This document shows, in pieces, positions 10,193-19,775 of a stretch of DNA of 19,775 bases. Numbering within the stretch: the first letter of the stretch is position 1; the number at the start of each line of letters is the position of its first letter. Below the pieces are notes generated by a model. That model searched no databases and was not told the DNA's origin. It worked only from the letters and a program-made list of their open reading frames with translations. The position numbers and the translations under genes were made by a program. The stretch comes from a virus (lineage: Duplodnaviria; Heunggongvirae; Uroviricota; Caudoviricetes), in the IMG/VR virus record IMGVR_UViG_2563366917_000005. One strand, written 5' to 3'.

Positions 10193-10238
10193 AAAGAATA
10201 AAAAAATCCCGCAGTGATCGCGGACAGGAACTGCGGGA
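10193..10238 (-). terminator. Minus-strand intrinsic terminator abutting the I stop codon (ucccgcag/cugcggga stem, then UUUUUUUAUUCUUU on the minus strand)
   Basis: 8 bp inverted repeat at 10207-10214 and 10231-10238 with a 16 nt loop. On the minus strand the hairpin is followed by a run of U's (the + strand A-tract 10193-10206). On the + strand the downstream sequence is not U-rich, so it should not stop late transcription into J. Confidence 0.5.
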
Positions 10239-10296
10239 GAGTTACGAAGATTAAGTGTAAGGAATTATTCTTATATCACGACAAAAAAATTAACGC
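10195..10296 (-). ncRNA. Candidate ~100 nt small RNA (minus strand) in the I-J intergenic insert; identity unknown
   Basis: Bounded by a perfect TATAAT -10 (minus strand, + coordinates 10303-10308) and the minus-strand terminator at 10193-10238. It has no plausible ORF and is AU-rich with a 3' hairpin plus U-tail, the usual layout of Hfq-type sRNAs. Ends are predicted, not measured. Confidence 0.3.
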
Positions 10297-10302
10297 AGAG
10301 AA

Positions 10303-10332
10303 ATTATACGCGCCACAGTCAGTGTGTGAAAA
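10303..10332 (-). promoter_or_regulatory. Putative sigma70 promoter on the minus strand: -35 TTTTCA, 18 nt spacer, -10 TATAAT
   Basis: Reverse complement of 10303-10308 is TATAAT; reverse complement of 10327-10332 is TTTTCA. It points toward the terminator at 10193-10238. Confidence 0.3.
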
Positions 10333-10403
10333 TGTGAAGATATTCAGAATTTTTATGCCATTACCGGTTTTAACCAACAGGATTATCGGTGGGCATGAAA
10401 GAA

Positions 10404-10438
10404 AACCCCGGTATCTGCTGATACCGGGGTTTCTCTTT
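10404..10438. terminator. Strong bidirectional intrinsic terminator hairpin in the I-J intergenic region (12 bp perfect stem aaccccgguauc/gauaccgggguu, 4 nt loop)
   Basis: Perfect inverted repeat at 10404-10415 and 10420-10431. It is followed on the + strand by UUCUCUUU and on the minus strand by UUCUUUC. Confidence 0.55.
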
Positions 10439-10535
10439 AGCATGGCAGAAATGTGTTTCATGCTTTTCGGGCGAAGGATATCCGACTTCTGTACGGAATG
10501 GCAAGTGGCGGTTAATTTATTCAGGGGAAGGCTGT

Positions 10536-13500
10536 ATGGGAAAAGGTGGCGGTAAGGCACACACGCCTCGTGAGGCGAAGGATAATCTCAAATCCACGCA
10601 GATGATGAGTGTGATTGATGCGATTGGTGAGGGACCGATAGAAGGTCCGGTGAAGGGACTGCAGAGTATTCTGGTGAACAAAACCCCGCTGACGGACACG
10701 GACGGTAATCCCGTGATACACGGTGTGACCGCGGTCTGGCGTGCCGGGGAGCAGGAGCAGACACCACCGGAAGGCTTTGAGTCCTCCGGAGCTGAAACCG
10801 GACTGGGCGTGGAAGTGACGAAGGCAAAACCGGTGACGCGCACCATTACGTCCGCGAACATTGACCGCCTGCGGGTTACCTTCGGGGTGCAGTCACTGGT
10901 GGAGACCACCTCAAAGGGTGACCGTAACCCGGCAACCGTCCGCCTGCTGATTCAGTTACAGCGTAACGGTAACTGGGTGACAGAAAAGGACGTCACCATT
11001 AACGGCAAGACCACCTCACAGTTCCTGGCCTCGGTGATTCTGGATAATCTGCCTCCCCGGCCCTTTAACATCCGGATGGTCAGGGAGACGGCGGACAGCA
11101 CCACGGACCAGCTGCAGAATAAGACGCTGTGGTCGTCATACACCGAAATCATCGATGTGAAACAGTGCTACCCGAACACGGCCATTGTGGGGCTGCAGGT
11201 GGATGCGGAGCAGTTCGGCGGCCAGCAGATGACGGTGAACTACCATATCCGCGGTCGTATCATCCAGGTGCCGTCAAACTATGACCCGGAAAAACGCACG
11301 TACAGTGGTATCTGGGACGGCAGTCTGAAACCGGCATACAGCAACAACCCGGCCTGGTGCCTGTGGGACATGCTGACTCACCCGCGCTACGGCATGGGAA
11401 AACGTCTGGGGGCGGCGGATGTGGACAAGTGGGCGCTGTATGCCATCGGGCAGTACTGCGATCAGACGGTCCCGGATGGTTTCGGGGGGACCGAGCCGCG
11501 GATGACCTTTAATGCGTACCTGGCACAACAGCGTAAGGCGTGGGACGTTCTCAGTGATTTCTGCTCTGCGATGCGCTGTATGCCGGTATGGAACGGTCAG
11601 ACGCTGACGTTCGTTCAGGACCGCCCGTCGGATGTGGTGTGGCCGTACACCAACAGCGATGTGGTGGTGGATGATAACGGCGTGGGATTCCGCTACAGCT
11701 TCAGTGCCCTGAAGGACCGGCACACGGCGGTGGAGGTGAATTACACCGACCCGCAGAACGGCTGGCAGACCTCCACGGAACTGGTGGAAGACCCGGAAGC
11801 CATACTGCGCTACGGACGCAACCTGCTGAAGATGGACGCGTTCGGCTGTACCAGCCGCGGTCAGGCCCACCGTGCCGGACTGTGGGTGATAAAGACCGAA
11901 CTGCTGGAAACGCAGACGGTGGATTTCACGCTCGGGTCTCAGGGGCTGCGGCACACACCCGGTGACATCATTGAAATCTGTGATAACGACTATGCCGGGA
12001 CCCTGACCGGCGGACGTGTCCTGTCCATTGATGCTGCCACCCGCACCCTGACGCTGGACCGTGAAGTGACACTTCCGGAGACCGGTGCCGCCACGGTGAA
12101 CCTGATTAACGGCAGCGGTAAGCCAGTGAGTGTGGACATCACCGAACACCCCGCGCCGGACCGGATACAGGTCAGTACCCTGCCTGATGGTGTGGAGACA
12201 TACGGGGTGTGGGGACTCTCCCTGCCGTCACTGCGCCGTCGCCTGTTCCGCTGTGTCTCCGTCCGGGAAAACACGGACGGCACCTTTGCCATCACGGCGG
12301 TGCAGCACGTACCGGAAAAAGAAGCCATCGTGGATAACGGTGCCCGCTTTGAGCCGCAGTCAGGTTCCCTGAACAGCGTCATCCCACCGGCAGTGCAGCA
12401 CCTGACGGTGGAGGTGAGCGCAGCTGACGGCCAGTATCTGGCGCAGGCGAAATGGGACACGCCGCGGGTGGTGAAGGGTGTGCGCTTCAGTCTGCGCCTG
12501 ACCAGTGGTAAGGGAACGGATGCCAGACTGGTGACCACCGCTATCACCGCAGACACGGAGCACCGTTTCAGCGGCCTGCCGCTCGGGGAATACACCCTGA
12601 CGGTGCGGGCGATAAACAGCTATGGCCAGCAGGGTGAACCTGCCACCACCACCTTCCGGATTGCCGCACCGGCAGCACCGTCGCGGATTGAGCTGACGCC
12701 GGGCTATTTTCAGATAACCGCCACGCCGCATCTTGCCGTTTATGACCCGACGGTACAGTTTGAGTTCTGGTTCTCGGAAAAGCGGATTGCGGATATCAGG
12801 CAGGTTGAAACCGCAGCCCGCTATCTTGGCTCGGCGCTGTACTGGATAGCTGCCAGTATCAATATCAAACCGGGCCATGATTATTATTTTTATATCCGCA
12901 GTGTGAATACTGTTGGCAAATCGGCATTCGTGGAGGCTGTCGGTCGGGCGAGCGATGATGCGGAAGGTTACCTGGATTTTTTCAAAGGAGAAATCGGGAA
13001 AACACATCTGGCCCAGGAGCTGTGGACGCAGATTGATAACGGTCAGCTTGCGCCGGACCTGGCTGAAATCAGGACGTCCATTACGAATGTCAGCAATGAA
13101 ATCACGCAGACCGTCAATAAAAAACTGGAAAATCAGAGTGCGGCAATCCAGCAGATACAGAAAGTTCAGGTTGATACAAATAATAACCTGAACAGCATGT
13201 GGGCCGTGAAACTGCAGCAGATGCAGGACGGACGCCTTTATATTGCGGGTATCGGTGCCGGTATTGAGAATACGCCAGCAGGAATGCAGAGTCAGGTGCT
13301 GCTGGCGGCAGACAGGATTGCGATGATTAATCCTGCGAATGGCAACACAAAGCCGATGTTTGTTGGTCAGGGCGATCAGATATTTATGAATGAAGTGTTC
13401 CTGAAATATCTGACGGCTCCCACCATTACCAGCGGCGGTAATCCTCCGGCATTTTCCCTGACACCGGACGGGCGGCTGACGGCGAAAAATGCCGATATCA

Positions 13501-14009
13501 GCGGTAACGTGAATGCGAACTCCGGGACGCTCAACAACGTCACGATTAACGAGAACTGTCGGGTTCTGGGAAAATTGTCCGCGAACCAGATTGAAGGCGA
13601 TCTCGTTAAAACAGTGGGCAAAGCTTTCCCCCGGGACTCCCGTGCACCGGAGCGGTGGCCATCAGGAACCATTACCGTCAGGGTTTATGACGATCAGCCG
13701 TTTGACCGGCAGATTGTTATTCCGGCGGTGGCATTCAGCGGCGCTAAACATGAGAAAGAGCATACTGATATTTACTCCTCATGCCGTCTGATAGTGCGGA
13801 AAAACGGTGCTGAAATTTATAACCGTACCGCGCTGGATAATACGCTGATTTACAGTGGTGTTATTGATATGCCTGCCGGTCACGGTCACATGACACTGGA
13901 GTTTTCGGTGTCAGCATGGCTGGTAAATAACTGGTATCCCACAGCAAGTATCAGCGATTTGCTGGTTGTGGTGATGAAGAAAGCCACTGCAGGCATCACG
14001 ATTAGCTGA
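10536..14009 (+). CDS. J: Central tail fibre / host specificity protein, gpJ-like
   Basis: 1157 aa; N-terminus [22 protein letters not shown] and long blocks match lambda J by recollection; RBS ggggaagg upstream. A central patch (about aa 820-890) and the last ~100 aa diverge from lambda. Confidence 0.95.
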
Positions 14010-14028
14010 ATTTTATAACCCAGATACG

Positions 14029-14056
14029 GGCGCCAGAAATGGCGCCTTTTTTATTG
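14029..14056 (+). terminator. Intrinsic terminator after J (ggcgcca/uggcgcc stem, GAAA loop, UUUUUUAUU)
   Basis: Inverted repeat at 14030-14036 and 14041-14047 followed by a T-run at 14048-14056. Confidence 0.6.
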
Positions 14057-14076: not shown

Positions 14077-14676
14077 ATGCGTAAATTATGTGCTGTTATT
14101 TTGTCCGCAGTAGTCTGGCAGGTCGCCGCTGCTACGCCAGCGAGTGCAGCAGAACATCAGTCCACGCTGAGCGCGGGGTATCTCCATGCCTCGACGAACG
14201 TTCCCGGTAGTGATGATCTGAACGGGATTAACGTGAAATACCGTTATGAGTTTACGGACGCGCTGGGGCTGATTACGTCCTTCAGTTATGCCAATGCTGA
14301 GGATGAGCAAAAAACGCGCTACAGCGATACCCGCTGGCATGAAGATTCCGTGCGTAACCGCTGGTTCAGCGTGATGGCGGGGCCGTCTGTACGCGTGAAT
14401 GAATGGTTCAGCGCGTATGCGATGGTGGGTGTGGCTTACAGCCGTGTGTCGACTTTCTCCGGGGATTATCTCCGCGTAACTGACAACAAGGGGAAAACGC
14501 ACGATGTGCTGACCGGAAGTGATGACGGTCGCCACAGCAACACGTCTCTGGCGTGGGGGGCTGGCGTGCAGTTTAATCCGACCGAATCCGTGACCATTGA
14601 CCTTGCTTATGAAGGTTCCGGTAGTGGCGACTGGCGAACGGATGCATTTATTGTTGGTATCGGATACCGTTTCTGA
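14077..14676 (+). CDS. lom: Lom-like outer-membrane beta-barrel protein (Ail/Lom/PagC family), a lysogenic-conversion moron
   Basis: 199 aa; signal-peptide-like N-terminus (MRKLCAVILSAVVWQVAAATPASA), GINVKYRYE.TD, WFSAYAM.GVA.SR, C-terminal DLAYEGSGSGDWRTD.FIVG.GY.F as in lambda Lom; RBS gagagg. Confidence 0.9.
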   Translation: MRKLCAVILSAVVWQVAAATPASAAEHQSTLSAGYLHASTNVPGSDDLNGINVKYRYEFTDALGLITSFSYANAEDEQKTRYSDTRWHEDSVRNRWFSVMAGPSVRVNEWFSAYAMVGVAYSRVSTFSGDYLRVTDNKGKTHDVLTGSDDGRHSNTSLAWGAGVQFNPTESVTIDLAYEGSGSGDWRTDAFIVGIGYRF

Positions 14677-14781
14677 CAACAGACGCCGATTTATCTTCTG
14701 TAAATATTGTTATGATACGCAGGTTCATCCACCTTATGGGGTGAACTGCGTTTGAGGAAACGTAAAGTTACACTGTCCTGA

Positions 14782-14816
14782 AGCCCGTGGCGTCACTGCT
14801 GCGGGCTTTTTTTATT
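14782..14816 (+). terminator. Terminator-like hairpin after lom (gcccg...cgggc stem, then UUUUUUUAUU)
   Basis: Inverted repeat at 14783-14787 and 14802-14806 with an internal structured loop, then a T-run at 14807-14816. Confidence 0.45.
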
Positions 14817-14827
14817 GGTGGAAAAGT

Positions 14828-17800
14828 ATGACAGTAAAAATTTCTGGCGTGCTTAAAGATGGCACAGGAAAACCAGTACAGAACTGCACCATTGTGCTGA
14901 AGGCCAGACGAACCAGCAGCACGGTGGTGGTGAACACGGTGGCCTCTGAAAATCCGGATGAAGCCGGACGTTACAGCATGGATGTTGAGCATGGTCAGTA
15001 CAGCGTCACCCTGCTGGTTGAAGGTTTTCCGCCTTCACATGCCGGGACCATTACCGTCTATGAAGGTTCCAGATCAGGTACGCTGAATGATTTTCTCGGT
15101 GCCATGACGGAGGATGATGTCCGACCGGAGGCACTGCGCCGCTTTGAGCAGATGGTGGAAGAGGTGTCACGTAACGCCTCCGCGGTTGCACAGAATACGG
15201 CAGCCGCGAAAAAATCAGCCAGCGATGCCAGTGCATCAGCCAGCGAGGCGGCAACTCATGCAACCGATGCTGCAGCCTCAGCACGTGCCGCCAGCACGTC
15301 AGCCGGACAGGCCGCGTCGTCGGCTCAGTCAGCGTCTTCCAGCGCAGGAACGGCATCGACAAAGACCCGTGAAGCAGCAAAAAGTGCTGCTGCTGCTGCA
15401 GAGTCATCAAAAAGCGCGGCAGCTACCAGCGCCAGTGCCGCGAAAACGTCAGAAACGAATGCCGCAGCATCACAAAAATCGGCAGCCACTTCTGCATCCA
15501 CAGCGACCACGAAGGCGTCAGAAGCTGCCACCTCGGCACGGGGTGCGGCGACCTCAAAAGAGGCAGCGAAATCTTCAGAAACGAATGCATCATCAAGTGC
15601 CAGTAGTGCAGCTTCCTCGGCAACGGCGGCAGGAAATTCCGCGAAGGCGGCAAAAACGTCCGAGACGAACGCTAAGTCTTCTGAAACAGCAGCGGGACAG
15701 AGCGCCTCAGCTGCGGCAGGTTCAAAAACAGCGGCTGCATTATCTGCCAGTGCCGCGTCAACAAGTGCCGGGCAGGCCTCAGCCAGTGCCACCGCCGCCG
15801 GAAAATCGGCAGAAAGCGCCGCATCATCCGCTTCAACAGCCACAACGAAGGCTGGCAAAGCCACTGAGCAAGCCACTGCAGCAGCGAGGTCTGCTTCTGC
15901 AGCAAAAACCTCTGAAACAAATGCAAAGACTTCAGCAGACAATGCTGCTTCCTCTAAGGCGGCAGCCGCATCGTCAGCCAGTTCAGCGGCGTCATCGGCA
16001 TCATCTGCGTCTGCTTCAAAAGATGAGGCGACCAGACAAGCGTCAGCAGCGAAAGGTAGTGCCACGACAGCAACAACGAAAGCATCAGAGGCGGCAGGCA
16101 GTGCGACGGCTGCATCTCAGAGCAAAGTTGCTGCTGAATCCGCGGCAACGCGCGCCGAGACAGCAGCAAAACGGGCAGAGGATATTGCATCCGCCGTGGC
16201 GCTGGAGGATGCGAGCACGACGAAAAAGGGGATAGTACAGCTCAGCAGTGCAACAAACAGCACCAGTGAAAAGCTGGCGGCAACGCCAAAGGCAGTTAAA
16301 ACTGTTAAAGATAGTTCAGTTCAAAAAACTGGCGACACAATGGGAGGGCAGTTAAAAATCAGCACGATAAATGCTCTTCGAATATTCAACCAAGCCTTTG
16401 GCCTTATTTTTAGGCGTTCCGAAGATCATCTTCATCTTATTCCGACTAATGAAGGGGAGGGGGAAAATGGAGACATCGGTTCATTAAGACCATTCTCTAT
16501 AAACTTAAGATCAGGGTTGGTGTCCATCGGTAATGGACTAAAAGTTGGTGGTAGTGTTACTGGTAATTTGACCGGAAACGCAGATACTGCGACCAAGATC
16601 AAGACAGCACGTAAGATTGGGGGCGTGGCATTTGATGGATCGGCAGATATCAACTTGCCTGGAGTCAACGCTACCGGTAATCAAAACACTACAGGTAATG
16701 CTGCGACCGCCACGAAACTTCAGGCAGCCAGAACGATTAACGGTGTGTCATTTGATGGTAGTGCAAATATCACATTGACCCCTTCAAATATTGGGGCATT
16801 GGCATTAACTGGAGGGACTCTTTCAGGTGGTTTAACTGCTGCTGGTGAGGTTATTTCAAGGTCAGCAAATGGTCTGCGTATTGCCTATGGCAACTATGGA
16901 TTCTTTATCCGAAATGATGGATCAAACACATATTTTATGTTGACAGATTCGGGTAACAGTCTTGGTACGCACAATAGCTTAAGGCCGTTTATAATTAGTA
17001 ACCATACTGGCAATGTTACAATTGCAACTAAATTAAACGCGAGTGGTGGTATCACTGGATCTTTATCGGGTAATGCAAGCACAGCAACCAAATTGCAAAC
17101 TGCAAGGACAATTAACGGCGTAAAATTTGACGGCTCGGCAAATATTGAAGCGTTTCCGCCAGGTGTTCCGCTGCCGTGGCCATCAGATACACCACCTGCA
17201 GGTTATGCAATCATGCAGGGGCAGACGTTTGATAAGGCAGCATATCCGAAACTGGCTATTGCCTATCCTTCAGGTGTTATTCCAGATATGCGCGGCTGGA
17301 CAATCAAGGGCAAACCCGCCAGTGGCCGGGCCGTATTGTCTCAGGAACAGGACGGCATTAAATCGCACACCCACAGCGCCAGCGCATCCAGTACGGATTT
17401 GGGGACGAAAACCACATCGTCGTTTGATTACGGCACTAAATCCACGAATAACACCGGGGCGCATACGCACAGTCTGAGTGGCTCTACGGGGTCTGCCGGT
17501 GTTCATACTCATGGTAATGGTATTCGTTGGCCAGGAGGCGGCGGTTCTGCGTTAGCATTTTATGATGGCGGTGGGTTCACTTATGTCCAGAATTCACAGT
17601 ATCAAGTAAGCCCGGAGACTTCTTCCTATAGATCGTATTATCAACGTATTCAGACACAGTCAGCAGGTGCTCATACCCACTCGCTGTCTGGTACTGCAGC
17701 AAGTTCTGGCGCACATGCACATACTGTAGGTATTGGTGCGCATACGCACTCCGTTGCGATTGGTTCACATGGACACACCATCACCGTTAACGCTGCGGGT

Positions 17801-17857
17801 AACGCGGAAAACACCGTCAAAAACATCGCATTTAACTATATTGTGAGGCTTGCATAA
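14828..17857 (+). CDS. stf: Side tail fibre protein, Stf-like (1009 aa; expanded Ala/Ser shaft, central tail-fibre repeat module, His-motif C-terminal region)
   Basis: N-terminus [22 protein letters not shown]...[14 protein letters not shown] and C-terminus ...[31 protein letters not shown] match lambda Stf by recollection. It contains three copies of the TATK(I/L)(K/Q)TAR.I.GV.FDGSA.I repeat and several (S/A)H(T/A/G)H(S/T) motifs. Confidence 0.9.
15200..16200 (+). repeat. Imperfect in-frame tandem repeats encoding the Ala/Ser/Thr-rich Stf shaft (recurring AAKTSETNA and SASxA units)
   Basis: Recurring DNA units such as gcgaaaacgtcagaaacgaatgc and gcaaaaacctctgaaacaaatgc; GC-rich in both strands, which creates spurious long ORFs in other frames. 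Confidence 0.6.
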
Positions 17858-18441
17858 TGGCATTCAGAATGAGTGAACAAGCACGGACCATAAAAATTTA
17901 TAATCTGCTGGCCGGAACTAATGAATTTATTGGTGAAGGTGACGCATATATTCCGCCTCATACAGGTCTGCCAGCAAACAGTACCGATATTGCACCACCA
18001 GATATTCCTGCTGGCTTTGTGGCTGTTTTCAACAGTGATGAGGCATCGTGGCATCTCGTTGAAGACCATCGGGGTAAAACGGTTTATGACGTAGCGTCAG
18101 GGGACGAGTTATTTATTTCTGAACTCGGTCCGTTACCGGAAAATGTTACCTGGTTATCGCCGGAAGGGGAGTTTCAGAAGTGGAACGGCACAGCCTGGGT
18201 GAAGGATACGGAAGCAGAAAAACTGTTCCGGATCCGGGAGGCGGAAGAAACAAAAAACAACCTGATGCAGGTAGCCAGTGAGCATATTGCGCCGCTTCAG
18301 GATGCTGCAGATCTGGAAATTGCAACGGAGGAAGAAACCTCATTGCTGGAAGCCTGGAAAAAGTATCGGGTGTTGCTGAACCGTGTTGATACATCAACTG
18401 CACCTGATATTGAGTGGCCTACGAACCCTGTCAGGGAGTAA
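17857..18441 (+). CDS. tfa: Tail fibre assembly (chaperone) protein, Tfa-like
   Basis: 194 aa; [82 protein letters not shown]...[26 protein letters not shown], almost identical to lambda Tfa by recollection; 1 nt overlap with the stf stop. Confidence 0.9.
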
Positions 18442-18495: not shown

Positions 18496-19164
18496 CTATT
18501 TTTTCCCTGAAGCGGAAAACATTACTACAGTACCTTGAACCTTGGTTTTAACATTCTCGAAATGCTCTGAGAGTATATGTGTTAAGCCTTCTTCGGAATC
18601 TTTTGTGTTTGAAAAGATGCCTTTCTGATTGTAAATGCGCATCAGTTTTTGACCGAAGCTATTGTGCACAACTCCATCGCCAAGAATTGTGGCTCCGTAT
18701 AGAGTTCCATCGTCAGTTAAGGCCTGCGCCGCATTGCGTATTACACAGCTTTTTGTAGATATATTTCCAGGCAGGCAGTGAAGAAGGTAAAACATGGAAA
18801 TGGAATCAAATTGACCATGTAACGCCGCGGGATAAGGATCAAAAACATCATGGCTAATTTTATGTTTAATTTTTGATTCCCCAGCCCTTGTCGATGCCGC
18901 GTTCAGGCTAGCTTCGTTCAAATCCATTAAAGATATCAGACTACTCTCAGGTACGTGAGTAAGGTAAAACCCAGTTCCAACACCAATATCCAGATGGTTG
19001 TTACCTACATGTTCCAGAAAGTGTGGAAGAAGGTGTTCCTTTGTAGGACATCCCCATGCAAGCCGATTTGATACTCCCAAAACCCACCAGTCATAAAGCT
19101 TTAGGGTAAGTGGTGTGTAAATTTTAGCCCCATCATCTGTGTTTTTTTTCATTGATTTCACCAT
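18496..19164 (-). CDS. Class I SAM-dependent methyltransferase-like protein (small-molecule or protein type, not a DNA methyltransferase); low-GC cargo gene
   Basis: 222 aa; Rossmann motif I LDIGVGTGFY, an acidic residue at the end of beta-2 (LISLMDLNE), a motif II-like DSISMFYLLHCLPG, and an N-terminal YDWW...AWG segment. No DPPY/NPPY or C5-methyltransferase motifs. Visibly AT-richer than the tail genes. The true start may be the second ATG (19152), given the promoter position. The arrangement recalls the DLP12 tfaD-ybcY-tfaX locus of E. coli K-12, as far as I remember it. Confidence 0.6.
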   Translation of the reverse strand: MVKSMKKNTDDGAKIYTPLTLKLYDWWVLGVSNRLAWGCPTKEHLLPHFLEHVGNNHLDIGVGTGFYLTHVPESSLISLMDLNEASLNAASTRAGESKIKHKISHDVFDPYPAALHGQFDSISMFYLLHCLPGNISTKSCVIRNAAQALTDDGTLYGATILGDGVVHNSFGQKLMRIYNQKGIFSNTKDSEEGLTHILSEHFENVKTKVQGTVVMFSASGKK

Positions 19165-19193
19165 GTTATAGTTTTATTTGTGAATTAAATCAA
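19165..19193 (-). promoter_or_regulatory. Putative sigma70 promoter for the methyltransferase-like gene: -35 TTGATT, 17 nt spacer, -10 TATAAC (minus strand)
   Basis: Reverse complement of 19188-19193 is TTGATT and of 19165-19170 is TATAAC. The -10 sits immediately next to the first ATG, implying a leaderless or very short-leader mRNA or use of the second ATG. Confidence 0.3.
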
Positions 19194-19220
19194 TTATGGC
19201 GATGAATTACAAGGGGTTAA

Positions 19221-19490
19221 ATGCTGCCGCAGCATAGCGATATTGAAATAGCCTGGTATGCTTCGATACAGCAGGAGCCGAATGGCTGGAAGACCGTCAC
19301 CACACAGTTCTACATCCAGGAATTCAGTGAGTATATTGCGCCACTGCAGGATGCTGTAGATCTGGAAATCGCAACGGAGGAAGAAAGATCGTTGCTGGAG
19401 GCATGGAATAAATATCGGGTATTGTTGAATCGTGTTGATACATCAACTGCACCTGATATTGAGTGGCCTGCAAATCCTGTCAGGGAGTAA
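19221..19490 (+). CDS. Tfa C-terminal paralog (chimeric 89 aa ORF: unique 37 aa N-terminus fused to the conserved Tfa C-terminal ~50 aa); possibly a gene fragment
   Basis: C-terminal [52 protein letters not shown] matches the Tfa C-terminus; RBS aagggg sits 5 nt before the ATG; the N-terminal part has no counterpart in tfa. Confidence 0.5.
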
Positions 19491-19540
19491 TCATTGGGAT
19501 TATGCCGCAGACACGTCGTATGCAGGAACGTGCTGCGGTT
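19326..19540 (+). repeat. Direct repeat copy B (~215 bp): tfa-like 3' end plus hairpin
   Basis: See copy A. The hairpin stems are conserved (ccgcag(a)cacgu / acgugcugcgg) while the loops differ. Confidence 0.8.
19505..19538. terminator. Hairpin B downstream of the tfa paralog (stem conserved with hairpin A, one bulged A, different loop)
   Basis: Stem at 19505-19516 and 19528-19538; weak U-tract. Confidence 0.35.
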
Positions 19541-19604
19541 AGTTTGTGAGCTTTCGATAGTGGTTGTTATTTTTGCCCTTATTTGTTCCGGAGGCCATGG
19601 TTCA

Positions 19605-19775
19605 ATGGTCCGTCTGCCCCCTGTGGTGATGTCAGCAAAATCAGCCACTGCGCGAACCACAATAGCCCGGGAAGATGCTGAAGATCACCAGGTAAAGCTA
19701 TCAGCGCAGAAACTGGAAGAACTGCTCGCATCAATGGTTAAGGATGAGGTTGATCGCAATGATGGGATTTATTGA
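19605..19775 (+). CDS. Hypothetical small protein (56 aa; MVRLPPVVMSAKSATARTT...), stop codon at the window end
   Basis: ORF with ggagg at 19590-19594 about 10 nt upstream of the ATG at 19605; charged, helical-looking C-terminus. No family recognised. Confidence 0.3.
   Translation: MVRLPPVVMSAKSATARTTIAREDAEDHQVKLSAQKLEELLASMVKDEVDRNDGIY

Follow-up and report, generated by a model that had tools for sequence, protein, structure and literature searches.

The open reading frame at positions 14828 to 17857 of the window (the whole 19,775-nucleotide stretch of DNA that was analyzed) lies on the + strand in the gene order J (10536-14009), lom (14077-14676), stf, tfa (17857-18441), which fits a side tail fiber (Stf) of the lambda type. 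The start of tfa overlaps the stop codon of stf (TAATG), and a near-identical annotated locus adjoins ompW and trp. The N-terminal attachment domain, the placement beside J, lom, and tfa, and the long proximal coiled coil that mark a lambda-type Stf were all found. Judged from its sequence, the gene is very probably the intact, modular stf of a lambda-like E. coli prophage belonging to the type that integrates beside ompW. The features of the locus are as follows.

14828-17857, + strand: stf, side tail fiber gene, intact, 1009 aa (open reading frame list and translation)
14828-15109, + strand: N-terminal tail-attachment (collar) domain, aa 1-94 (PF08400, 9E7M)
15173-16192, + strand: Ala/Ser-rich heptad-repeat coiled-coil shaft, aa 116-455 (periodicity and lambda alignment)
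15214-15225 and 15235-15246, + strand: two 12-nt direct repeats, ATCAGCCAGCGA, which flank a one-heptad (21-nt) deletion in other alleles
15385-15399, + strand: (TGC)5 microsatellite encoding AAAAA (codons 187-191, 15386-15400) (Tandem Repeats Finder)
15437-15463, 15563-15589, 15647-15673, and 15899-15925, + strand: four dispersed in-phase copies of AAK(T/S)SETNA, within 15437-15925 (repeat search, family D2)
16208-16327, + strand: conserved linker, aa 461-500, containing the first junction at 16300/16301 (Mu S and lambda alignments)
16301-17173, + strand: low-GC central module, unrelated to the central region of lambda (GC3 and alignment breaks)
16328-16582, + strand: central sub-domain A, aa 501-585, first copy of the globular domain (pairwise comparison)
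16571-16690 and 16691-16810, + strand: TATK...FDGSA repeats 1 and 2 (sequence comparison)
16808-17062, + strand: central sub-domain B, aa 661-745, of the T4 gp34/Mu gpS type (PF21446, 5YVQ, 4UXE)
17066-17170, + strand: TATK...FDGSA repeat 3 (sequence comparison)
17174-17518, + strand: collar domain and ascending needle half (HxH 1 to 3), with the second junction at 17173/17174 (PF07484, 2XGF)
17519-17662, + strand: variable distal tip (head) domain, aa 898-945, putative receptor-binding site (T4 gp37 alignment)
17663-17854, + strand: descending needle half (HxH 4 to 7) and conserved C terminus (75% identical to T4 gp37, 88% to lambda)
17857-18441, + strand: tfa, tail fiber assembly chaperone (PF02413, E = 2e-44; 94% identical to lambda Tfa)

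The best RefSeq coding sequence match, annotated as "prophage tail fiber N-terminal domain-containing protein," is 99.9% identical. The Stf protein has Pfam matches to PF08400, PF21446, PF07484, and PF03335, and 52 PHROG families match different segments of this single protein. A search of NCBIfam returned no family for Stf or Tfa and none naming the Stf protein, Rfam gave no match within stf, and promoter and terminator scans within the gene were at or near background. The allele occurs in about 423 of 5,426 complete E. coli genomes (best identity, 99.9%); 375 genome records match it at 99% identity or more across the whole gene, and the exact 1009-aa protein turned up in 121 blocks of the public assembly collection, with more than 100 assemblies encoding it.

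At the N terminus, PF08400 spans aa 1 to 134 (E = 1e-68), and residues 1 to 94 align with residues 1 to 94 of the Ur-lambda Stf N-terminal domain (PDB 9E7M; E = 5e-46), to which a tail-attachment role is ascribed (PMC12617516). Nucleotides 1 to 911 and 1217 to 1472 of stf are 84% and 77% identical to lambda DNA, respectively, and protein residues 1 to 495 are 82% identical to Ur-lambda Stf, two gaps excepted. The lambda-like N-terminal part is therefore about 491 aa long rather than the roughly 120 aa given in the initial annotation, whose claim of lambda-like ends was borne out and even understated; at the C terminus, the last 234 aa are 84 to 88% identical to lambda outside the tip.

In lambda Stf, the region to which the shaft aligns is the proximal coiled coil at residues 102 to 393 (PMC12617516). 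The shaft is longer than that of lambda, as had been suspected, by 106 aa (a single 105-aa gap plus one Ala), and these extra residues would add about 16 nm to its length. The initial annotation had also described the shaft as built of imperfect tandem units. Its repeat order is real and has a 7-residue period, but Tandem Repeats Finder, run over 14700-18000, detected only the (TGC)5 at 15385-15399 and two short arrays (arrays of 15 to 29 nt); because no substantial tandem array was found, we replace the tandem units with heptad periodicity. Identity at a lag of 7 residues is 0.43 versus 0.23 in shuffled sequences (z = 9.9; 0 of 5,000 shuffles as high), the top self-identity offsets are all multiples of 7 aa (21 nt), and one heptad position is Ala in each of the 38 heptads between aa 190 and 455. 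The copies of AAK(T/S)SETNA start at aa 204, 246, 274, and 358, with spacings of 42, 28, and 84 aa, each a multiple of 7, and the DNA copies of longer shaft motifs are just 64 to 82% identical to each other. To judge from this periodicity, the shaft is a strict heptad coiled coil and not a DNA tandem array. The fiber is presumably a trimer.

The linker that follows matches residues 82 to 150 of Mu tail fiber S (5YVQ) and aligns with lambda ...KAVKVVMDETNR(393). No DNA match to the central module was found in the Stf genes of four lambdoid phages, and no phage record in the collection carries the whole module at high identity, the best being a P1-like plasmid prophage with 65% amino acid identity. 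PF21446 (Gp34_trimer) spans aa 621 to 723 (E = 1e-26; 94 bits versus a Pfam gathering cutoff of 27). Sub-domain B matches residues 268 to 350 of Mu gpS (5YVQ; E = 2e-24) and T4 gp34 (4UXE; E = 2e-17), and the structure matches of the gp34/Mu gpS type comprise 5YVQ (best E = 4e-30), 4UXE, 5NXF, and 9X3R. Sub-domain A shares 42% identity with sub-domain B taken together with the repeat after it (E = 7e-23), a duplication that emerged in direct pairwise comparison, self-BLASTP with composition correction having returned no internal repeat. The three TATK...FDGSA copies pointed out initially were recovered at aa 582 to 621, 622 to 661, and 747 to 781, with 18 invariant positions. By homology, then, the central module is a replacement that is related to T4 gp34 and Mu gpS and is internally duplicated. 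An expansion of lambda's own module was ruled out, since the central region of lambda is a different sequence. Single-sequence, single-chain AlphaFold2 prediction of aa 491 to 790 gave a pLDDT of 40 and a pTM of 0.20, so that the fold of the module is read from sequence homology only.

In the C-terminal region, PF07484 (Collar) spans aa 779 to 826, the match to the T4 gp37 tip (2XGF) is collinear (E = 1e-79), and the product of 17174-17518 is 77% identical to T4 gp37 and 84% identical to lambda. The multiple HxH motifs expected here number seven (aa 846, 878, 892, 948, 962, 971, and 980). Such motifs bind metal in T4 and presumably do so in this protein as well. Between HxH 3 and HxH 4, the tip aligns with T4 gp37 residues ~934 to 962 at 38% identity, with indels. 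This is the sub-segment that had been singled out as unlike lambda, and it is indeed 25% identical to lambda versus 84 to 88% in its flanks. The GC3 of the tip is 0.35. Among 50,697 phage records just 2 carry this tip, and no characterized phage does. The collar and the needle with HxH motifs of a T4 gp37-type tip are thus present (2XGF), whereas the conserved OmpC/LPS-binding head is not (the 29 positions that align are 38% identical, and 19 residues are additional). The tip most likely binds the receptor. The receptor of lambda Stf is OmpC, and reversible binding speeds adsorption; because the tip is 25% identical to that of lambda, OmpC binding cannot be assumed here.

The AT-rich segment noticed initially is real (for 16298-17152, GC is 0.43 and GC3 is 0.34, versus a GC3 of 0.62 in the other tail genes of the window). 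The visible contrast is partly compositional, since amino acid content explains why the shaft is GC-rich (GC2, 0.77; GC3, just 0.45), and this speaks for an explanation in which an Ala-rich, GCN-encoded shaft simply stands beside an Asn/Thr/Gly/Ile-rich module, with no foreign DNA. However, the amino acids of the module combined with the codon usage of the window predict a GC3 of 0.59 against the observed 0.34 (z about −9.8), which largely refutes an effect of amino acids only, and the edges of the low-GC block match the alignment breakpoints in four phages; we consider that explanation extremely improbable. Alignments to the four lambdoid phages all end at stf nt 1472-1473 and restart at nt 2347, with a third variable block at about nt 2655-2825, and a set of 60 complete IMG/VR alleles that share this N-terminal domain shows independent assortment of the shaft, the central sub-modules, the collar/needle, and the tip. 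Module swapping, as proposed initially, is hence supported by three independent lines (GC3 shift, common breakpoints, and independent assortment), and the gene is, on the evidence of these alignments, assembled from modules common to phages lambda, Mu/P1/P2, and T4. The swapping may also have changed receptor specificity, as was proposed along with it. Uniform composition and a co-linear alignment with a single known stf allele had been named as observations that would refute such a mosaic; formally, this test goes against it, because the gene can be aligned from end to end, with no breakpoint, to an allele that hundreds of E. coli genomes carry. What the window shows is therefore an old, shared mosaic rather than one peculiar to it. 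A relic gene of a defective prophage, no longer under selection for its fiber, would fit with the truncated tail-fiber-assembly fragments downstream, with the extra Ala that disturbs an otherwise unbroken heptad register, and with lambda PaPa, in which stf was lost without killing the phage (PMC12617516). We nevertheless consider a relic quite unlikely, as the 3-kb reading frame is intact, all domains and the seven HxH motifs are kept, and the identical protein is maintained in many independent assemblies. The prophage could be defective, yet all tail genes in the window are open, and the fiber of this mosaic gene is presumably produced.

The repeats had also been proposed as substrates for length variation, and 21-nt and 336-nt deletions at repeats, together with (TGC)n of 3, 4, and 5 copies, agree with this. 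Compared with relatives, the shaft differs by indels of 7, 105, 112, and 224 aa (1, 15, 16, and 32 heptads) in addition to the Ala-run polymorphism. The 21-nt deletion was seen in alignments with alleles L018 and L021, and a 336-nt (16-heptad) deletion in L023-type alleles was placed at 15569-15904; copies 2 and 4 of AAKxSETNA are separated by 336 nt, the very length of that deletion. Shaft length is the same in 108 of the 115 homologues having both anchor motifs. As 2 of the 115 homologues have 3-residue indels and the extra Ala of the window breaks the register, heptad quantization is a strong tendency and no rule. The (TGC)5 tract is one copy above most alleles, relatives having 3 or 4 Ala residues; the extra Ala codon is the sole difference from the best RefSeq match, and the 5-Ala run coincides with a +1 shift of the heptad register. 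Of 990 complete genomes with this segment, none has five TGC copies, and the exact 5-Ala protein is present in many draft and metagenome assemblies. An assembly error as the source of the extra codon was ruled out, because many independent NCBI and ENA assemblies encode precisely this 1009-aa protein, although no complete RefSeq genome does. Near-identical alleles with 3, 4, or 5 TGC copies and the 21-nt deletion between 12-nt direct repeats could also be taken as signs of a hypermutable tandem-repeat (contingency) locus, with fiber length changing at high frequency within strains. This we regard as very improbable, since the arrays are no longer than 15 to 29 nt, the longer motif copies have diverged to 64 to 82% DNA identity, 375 genome records are nearly invariant across the gene, and shaft length is constant in all but a few of the homologues; the long, similar head-to-tail DNA repeats of contingency loci are absent, and indels are rare. 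All indels also preserve the reading frame, so they do not switch stf on and off. A further reading is that shaft length is tuned under selection in whole-heptad steps that match the depth of host surface layers, and that (TGC)3-5 adds or removes one "skip" residue and so puts a twist between the anchor and the distal two-thirds of the fiber; the 5-Ala allele would then be a functional geometric variant and not neutral slippage. We mention it as a rather doubtful proposal.

By sequence homology, in the modular fiber favored here, residues 1 to 94 are the collar domain that anchors the fiber to the tail in Ur-lambda, residues ~102 to 455 constitute the proximal shaft, a long Ala/Ser-rich heptad coiled coil, and the linker (aa 461 to 500) joins this shaft to a central module of two gp34/Mu gpS-type globular domains interleaved with three TATK...FDGSA repeats. 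The C terminus is a collar and needle of the T4 gp37 type with a divergent head at the far end, and Tfa, encoded directly 3' of stf, is the assembly chaperone of the fiber. Recombination at short conserved junction sequences very probably built stf and introduced lower-GC modules common to myophage fibers. Shaft length changes mainly via deletion or duplication between in-phase repeats, and most shaft variants therefore differ by whole heptads.

The gene and such mosaics are already well known, and the description given in the initial annotation is correct; there is little import beyond annotation itself, which gains a confident label as a complete side tail fiber and mapped module boundaries. 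The allele is a source of two ready-made parts, an uncharacterized gp37-type tip and a spacer module resembling gp34, and the near-perfect heptad order of the shaft suggests a simple rule for resizing such fibers, namely, in multiples of 7.

Ur-lambda Stf has 774 aa and corresponds to orf-401 plus orf-314 in lambda PaPa. The protein described here shares with it the locus position, the N-terminal collar domain, the coiled-coil shaft (82%), the linker, the collar/needle layout (84 to 88%), and Tfa (94%). It differs in that its shaft is longer by 105 aa (15 heptads) plus 1 Ala, in that lambda residues ~394 to 528 (PLDSPALTG...GAGENS) are replaced by an unrelated 287-aa gp34/Mu-S-like module, and in its tip (25% identical), whereas a 10-aa duplication and an additional HxH unit are present in lambda (8 versus 7 here). 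With the T4 gp37 tip (2XGF), it shares a collar, a needle, and seven collinear HxH motifs, with 75 to 77% identity outside the head; the head, in contrast, has 48 aa here versus 29 in T4 (38% identical), the chaperone is a lambda-type Tfa and not gp38, and the carrier is a siphovirus tail. Sub-domain B and the TATK...FDGSA repeats are shared with T4 gp34 (4UXE, 5NXF) and with Mu gpS, P1 S, and P2 H (5YVQ) at E = 1e-15 to 1e-30, the matching DNA segments of Mu, P1, P7, and P2 being 70 to 75% identical; unlike in T4 gp34 and Mu gpS, the domain is duplicated here and forms part of a lambdoid Stf, where the coiled coil precedes it and a gp37-type tip follows. No isolated phage of the collection carries the module whole. 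Finally, functional engineered lambda STF chimeras were fused at R393 (MDETNR) and S528 (GAGENS) (Brodel et al., Nature 2024, PMC11338833), residues that align with the natural junctions at 16300/16301 and 17173/17174. The natural junctions thus coincide with the fusion points used for re-targeting lambda-derived delivery particles. Those chimeras were made in the laboratory and carry distal parts from P2, K1F, K5, or KL106 (PMC11338833), whereas the allele described here is a natural one.

The initial annotation had read stf, the side tail fiber gene, as a mosaic with lambda-like ends. The window comes from a lambda-like prophage and contains its late genes (head and tail), and stf, an open reading frame (ORF) of 1009 codons, lies among its neighbors as follows.

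Genes around stf (window numbering)
10536-14009: J, upstream of stf
14077-14676: Ail/Lom gene, between J and stf
14828-17857 (+): stf, encoding Stf
17857-18441: tfa, the tail fiber assembly gene, directly after stf, with its ATG overlapping the stf stop

Module swapping, as proposed in that annotation, is borne out by central breakpoints common to lambda and four lambdoid phages and by the combinatorial modules of 60 alleles. Breakpoints were mapped by BLASTN of stf against lambda and phages 204576, mEp332, PhiR26_1, and PhiR29_1. The four lambdoid phages were collinear with stf nucleotides (nt) 1 to 1472/1473 at 87 to 89% identity, no alignment was obtained in lambda or the four for nt 1474 to 2346, and lambda and lambdoid alignments restarted exactly at nt 2347, breaking again at approximately nt 2655 to 2825 except in phage 204576, which has the entire C-terminal part in common with stf (94.7%). 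In window numbering, the junctions fall at 16300/16301 and 17173/17174, with a variable block at approximately 17482-17652. The central gap measures 873 nt in the window, 430 nt in lambda, and 802, 935, or 1261 nt in the other four phages. Junction 1 lies inside a conserved linker that also matches Mu gpS, and junction 2 lies just upstream of the collar motif PxGxPxPWPSD; the lambda residues aligned with them are R393 and S528, the fusion points of working lambda-P2 and lambda-K1F/K5/KL106 STF chimeras (PMC11338833). Among 60 complete IMG/VR alleles with the same N-terminal domain, modules occur in many combinations: sub-domain A (amino acids [aa] 501-585) with unrelated C termini, sub-domain B (aa 661-745) plus the third TATK repeat in a 1680-aa protein, the window tip with several other central modules, and the window needle with other tips. 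Segment by segment, the single Stf protein matches 52 different PHROG families.

An AT-richer central segment had also been noted, and sliding-window GC content is indeed not uniform along stf: in a 200-nt profile it is 0.56 to 0.63 over 15100-16300, 0.38 to 0.48 over 16300-17100, and approximately 0.5 beyond.

GC content by codon position
Shaft: GC2 0.77, GC3 0.45
Central module (aa 491-775): GC3 0.34
Tip: GC3 0.35
tfa: GC3 0.44
Other tail genes of the window: GC3 0.62

The high GC content of the shaft is an amino-acid effect of Ala, Ser, and Thr codons. The central shift persists at third codon positions, where GC3 is 0.34 versus 0.59 expected from the module's own amino acids (z ~ −9.8), so the low-GC block is real at synonymous sites.

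The central module matches the Pfam family Gp34_trimer and the solved structures of Mu tail fiber S (5YVQ) and T4 gp34 (4UXE, 5NXF, 9X3R). It contains the three 30- to 40-aa tail fiber repeats recognized at the outset (GNAxTATKxxxARxIxGVxFDGSAxI, 18 invariant positions). Residues ~502-608 and ~668-773, each a globular domain with the next TATK repeat, share 42% identity (E = 7e-23), with one further TATK repeat between the two copies; judged by this similarity, the module is an internal duplication. P1, P7, Mu, P2, and T4-like phages carry pieces of it at 70 to 75% DNA identity, and none of 50,697 phage records contained the entire module at high identity. A single-chain AlphaFold2 model of it reached a pLDDT of only 40, too low for use. 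That the module might be an enlarged lambda central region was rejected, since lambda's region (PLDSPALTGTPTAP...GAGENS) is another sequence, which the gp34/Mu-S-like module replaces in the window Stf.

The "imperfect tandem units" described in the shaft (aa 116-455) stood only in part. Tandem Repeats Finder reported only (TGC)5 and two 26- to 29-nt arrays, which rules out a DNA tandem array; the AAK(T/S)SETNA copies are real, and their spacings of 42, 28, and 84 residues place them in phase with the heptad, which is the ordering unit. All 15 best self-identity offsets of the shaft are multiples of 7 aa, each of the 12 top DNA offsets listed is a multiple of 21 nt, and lag-7 identity is 0.43 versus 0.23 ± 0.02 in shuffles. 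Over aa 190-455, one heptad position is Ala in 38/38 heptads, the residue four after it is Ala in 26/38, and the residue just before the latter is Ser in 30/38. Residues 102-393 of Ur-lambda Stf, which align with this shaft, are described in a cryo-EM/cryo-ET study as the trimeric fiber's proximal coiled coil (PMC12617516). Two other-frame ORFs overlie the shaft (15114-16235 [+], 373 aa; 15325-16065 [−], 246 aa); they resemble the annotated orf206b opposite lambda orf-401 and are most likely artifacts of stop-poor, GCN-rich composition.

Length variation between repeats, as anticipated, is seen in a 21-nt deletion between direct repeats, a 336-nt gap between AAKxSETNA copies, and (TGC)n differences.

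All observed differences in shaft length from the common 1008-aa allele
Lambda: −105 aa (15 heptads)
L018-type alleles: −7 aa; 21-nt deletion flanked by two 12-nt direct repeats (ATCAGCCAGCGA)
L023-type alleles: −112 aa (16 heptads); this gap is the exact 336-nt span from AAKxSETNA copy 2 to copy 4
L070-type alleles: −224 aa (32 heptads)
Window allele: one additional Ala; (TGC)5 versus (TGC)4
P0040 and P0043 (2 of 115 homologues with both anchor motifs): 3-aa indels

The Ala run is 3, 4, or 5 residues long across alleles. Lambda and the common 4-Ala form keep an unbroken heptad register along the shaft (~aa 116-455, window numbering), and the window's fifth Ala shifts the register by +1 at aa 187-191. 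Five TGC copies were found in none of the complete RefSeq genomes; many draft and metagenome assemblies contain the exact 5-Ala protein, which is therefore a real variant.

Distally, Stf residues 744-1009 match the crystallized T4 gp37 fragment (2XGF; E = 1e-79). The multiple C-terminal HxH motifs of the initial annotation number seven, and the sub-segment said to differ from lambda (aa 898-945, between HxH motifs 3 and 4) has 25% identity to it versus 84 to 88% in the flanks. This sub-segment aligns with approximately gp37 residues 934-962. In the T4 gp37 structure, the chain ascends the needle, folds into the receptor-binding domain at its far tip, and then runs back, as summarized for lambda in PMC7291167; from the alignment with that domain, we infer that aa 898-945 form the receptor-binding head. 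This putative head is present in only two phage records, both uncharacterized.

The neighboring sequence offers further observations. An AT-rich insert of ~343 nt (10193-10535) separates the gpI-like gene from J, where lambda has ~60 nt. It contains two strong hairpins, of which one precedes a T-run, and a doubtful 113-aa GTG frame as its sole ORF; it matches PPompW prophages and Stx2a phages at 91.6%, without annotation there, and an Rfam search of it gave no match. It may represent a small moron or an sRNA. The lom gene is flanked by strong terminator-like hairpins at 14028-14047 (8 pairs) and 14780-14809 (13 pairs) (+), both with a T-run after them; the latter hairpin ends 18 nt upstream of the stf ATG. 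The unit looks like a moron, and stf expression would have to rely on late-transcription read-through of the unit. Wholly within tfa, 18200-18398 (+) matches Rfam family IS009 (RF02111; 225 bits versus a gathering score of 117), probably merely as conserved prophage tfa sequence. Downstream of tfa lie a YbcY-like class I SAM methyltransferase gene (18496-19164, minus strand), a fragment (89 aa, 19221-19490) of a second tail fiber assembly gene, and a fragment resembling DUF4376. They may represent what is left of an earlier fiber or chaperone cassette; PhiR26_1 and PhiR29_1 share the arrangement of 18496-19775.

We propose that the N-terminal domains would form the collar on the tail and that the coiled coil would project the fiber ~16 nm further than lambda's (106 residues at ~0.15 nm/residue). 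Past a hinge, the distal rod would consist of gp34/Mu-S-like knobs and repeats, and the head domain, displayed by the gp37-like needle, would contact a surface receptor, allowing fast reversible adsorption before J meets its own receptor. Tfa would act as chaperone for C-terminal trimerization. We infer the oligomeric state, metal binding, hinge behavior, and receptor binding of Stf; its homology, junctions, composition, and periodicity are observed directly. The initial annotation was essentially right in description and interpretation.

RefSeq already includes this very allele of stf. The best matches of the entire gene are Escherichia coli chromosomes (99.9% identity); of 5,426 complete genomes, 423 contain at least 80% of it, and identity reaches 99% or more in 375 records. 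In one matching genome, where the prophage adjoins a truncated ompW and the trp operon, the coding sequence is labeled "prophage tail fiber N-terminal domain-containing protein." The exact 1009-aa Stf occurs, in the same gene context, in 121 blocks of a public assembly collection. With the exact protein and an annotated near-identical coding sequence on record, both the sequence and its annotation as a tail fiber are thus public already. Several partial homologues on public record (P0021, P0028, P0031; ~89% identical) bear the source name "short-chain fatty acid transporter, partial," an evident mis-annotation spreading through databases.

That lambda, Mu, P1, P2, and T4 have mosaic tail fiber genes in common has long been textbook knowledge, and each element of Stf has a named, structurally characterized relative. 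The heptad order, near-quantized indels, internal duplication, gp37-type head as the divergent block, and match of natural with engineered junctions are refinements rather than surprises. Outside the head, T4 gp37 is 75 to 77% identical to the window Stf, and its seven HxH motifs are all collinear with the seven there, whereas lambda Stf has eight and an additional 10-aa duplication; the head itself spans 29 aa in T4 and 48 aa in the window.
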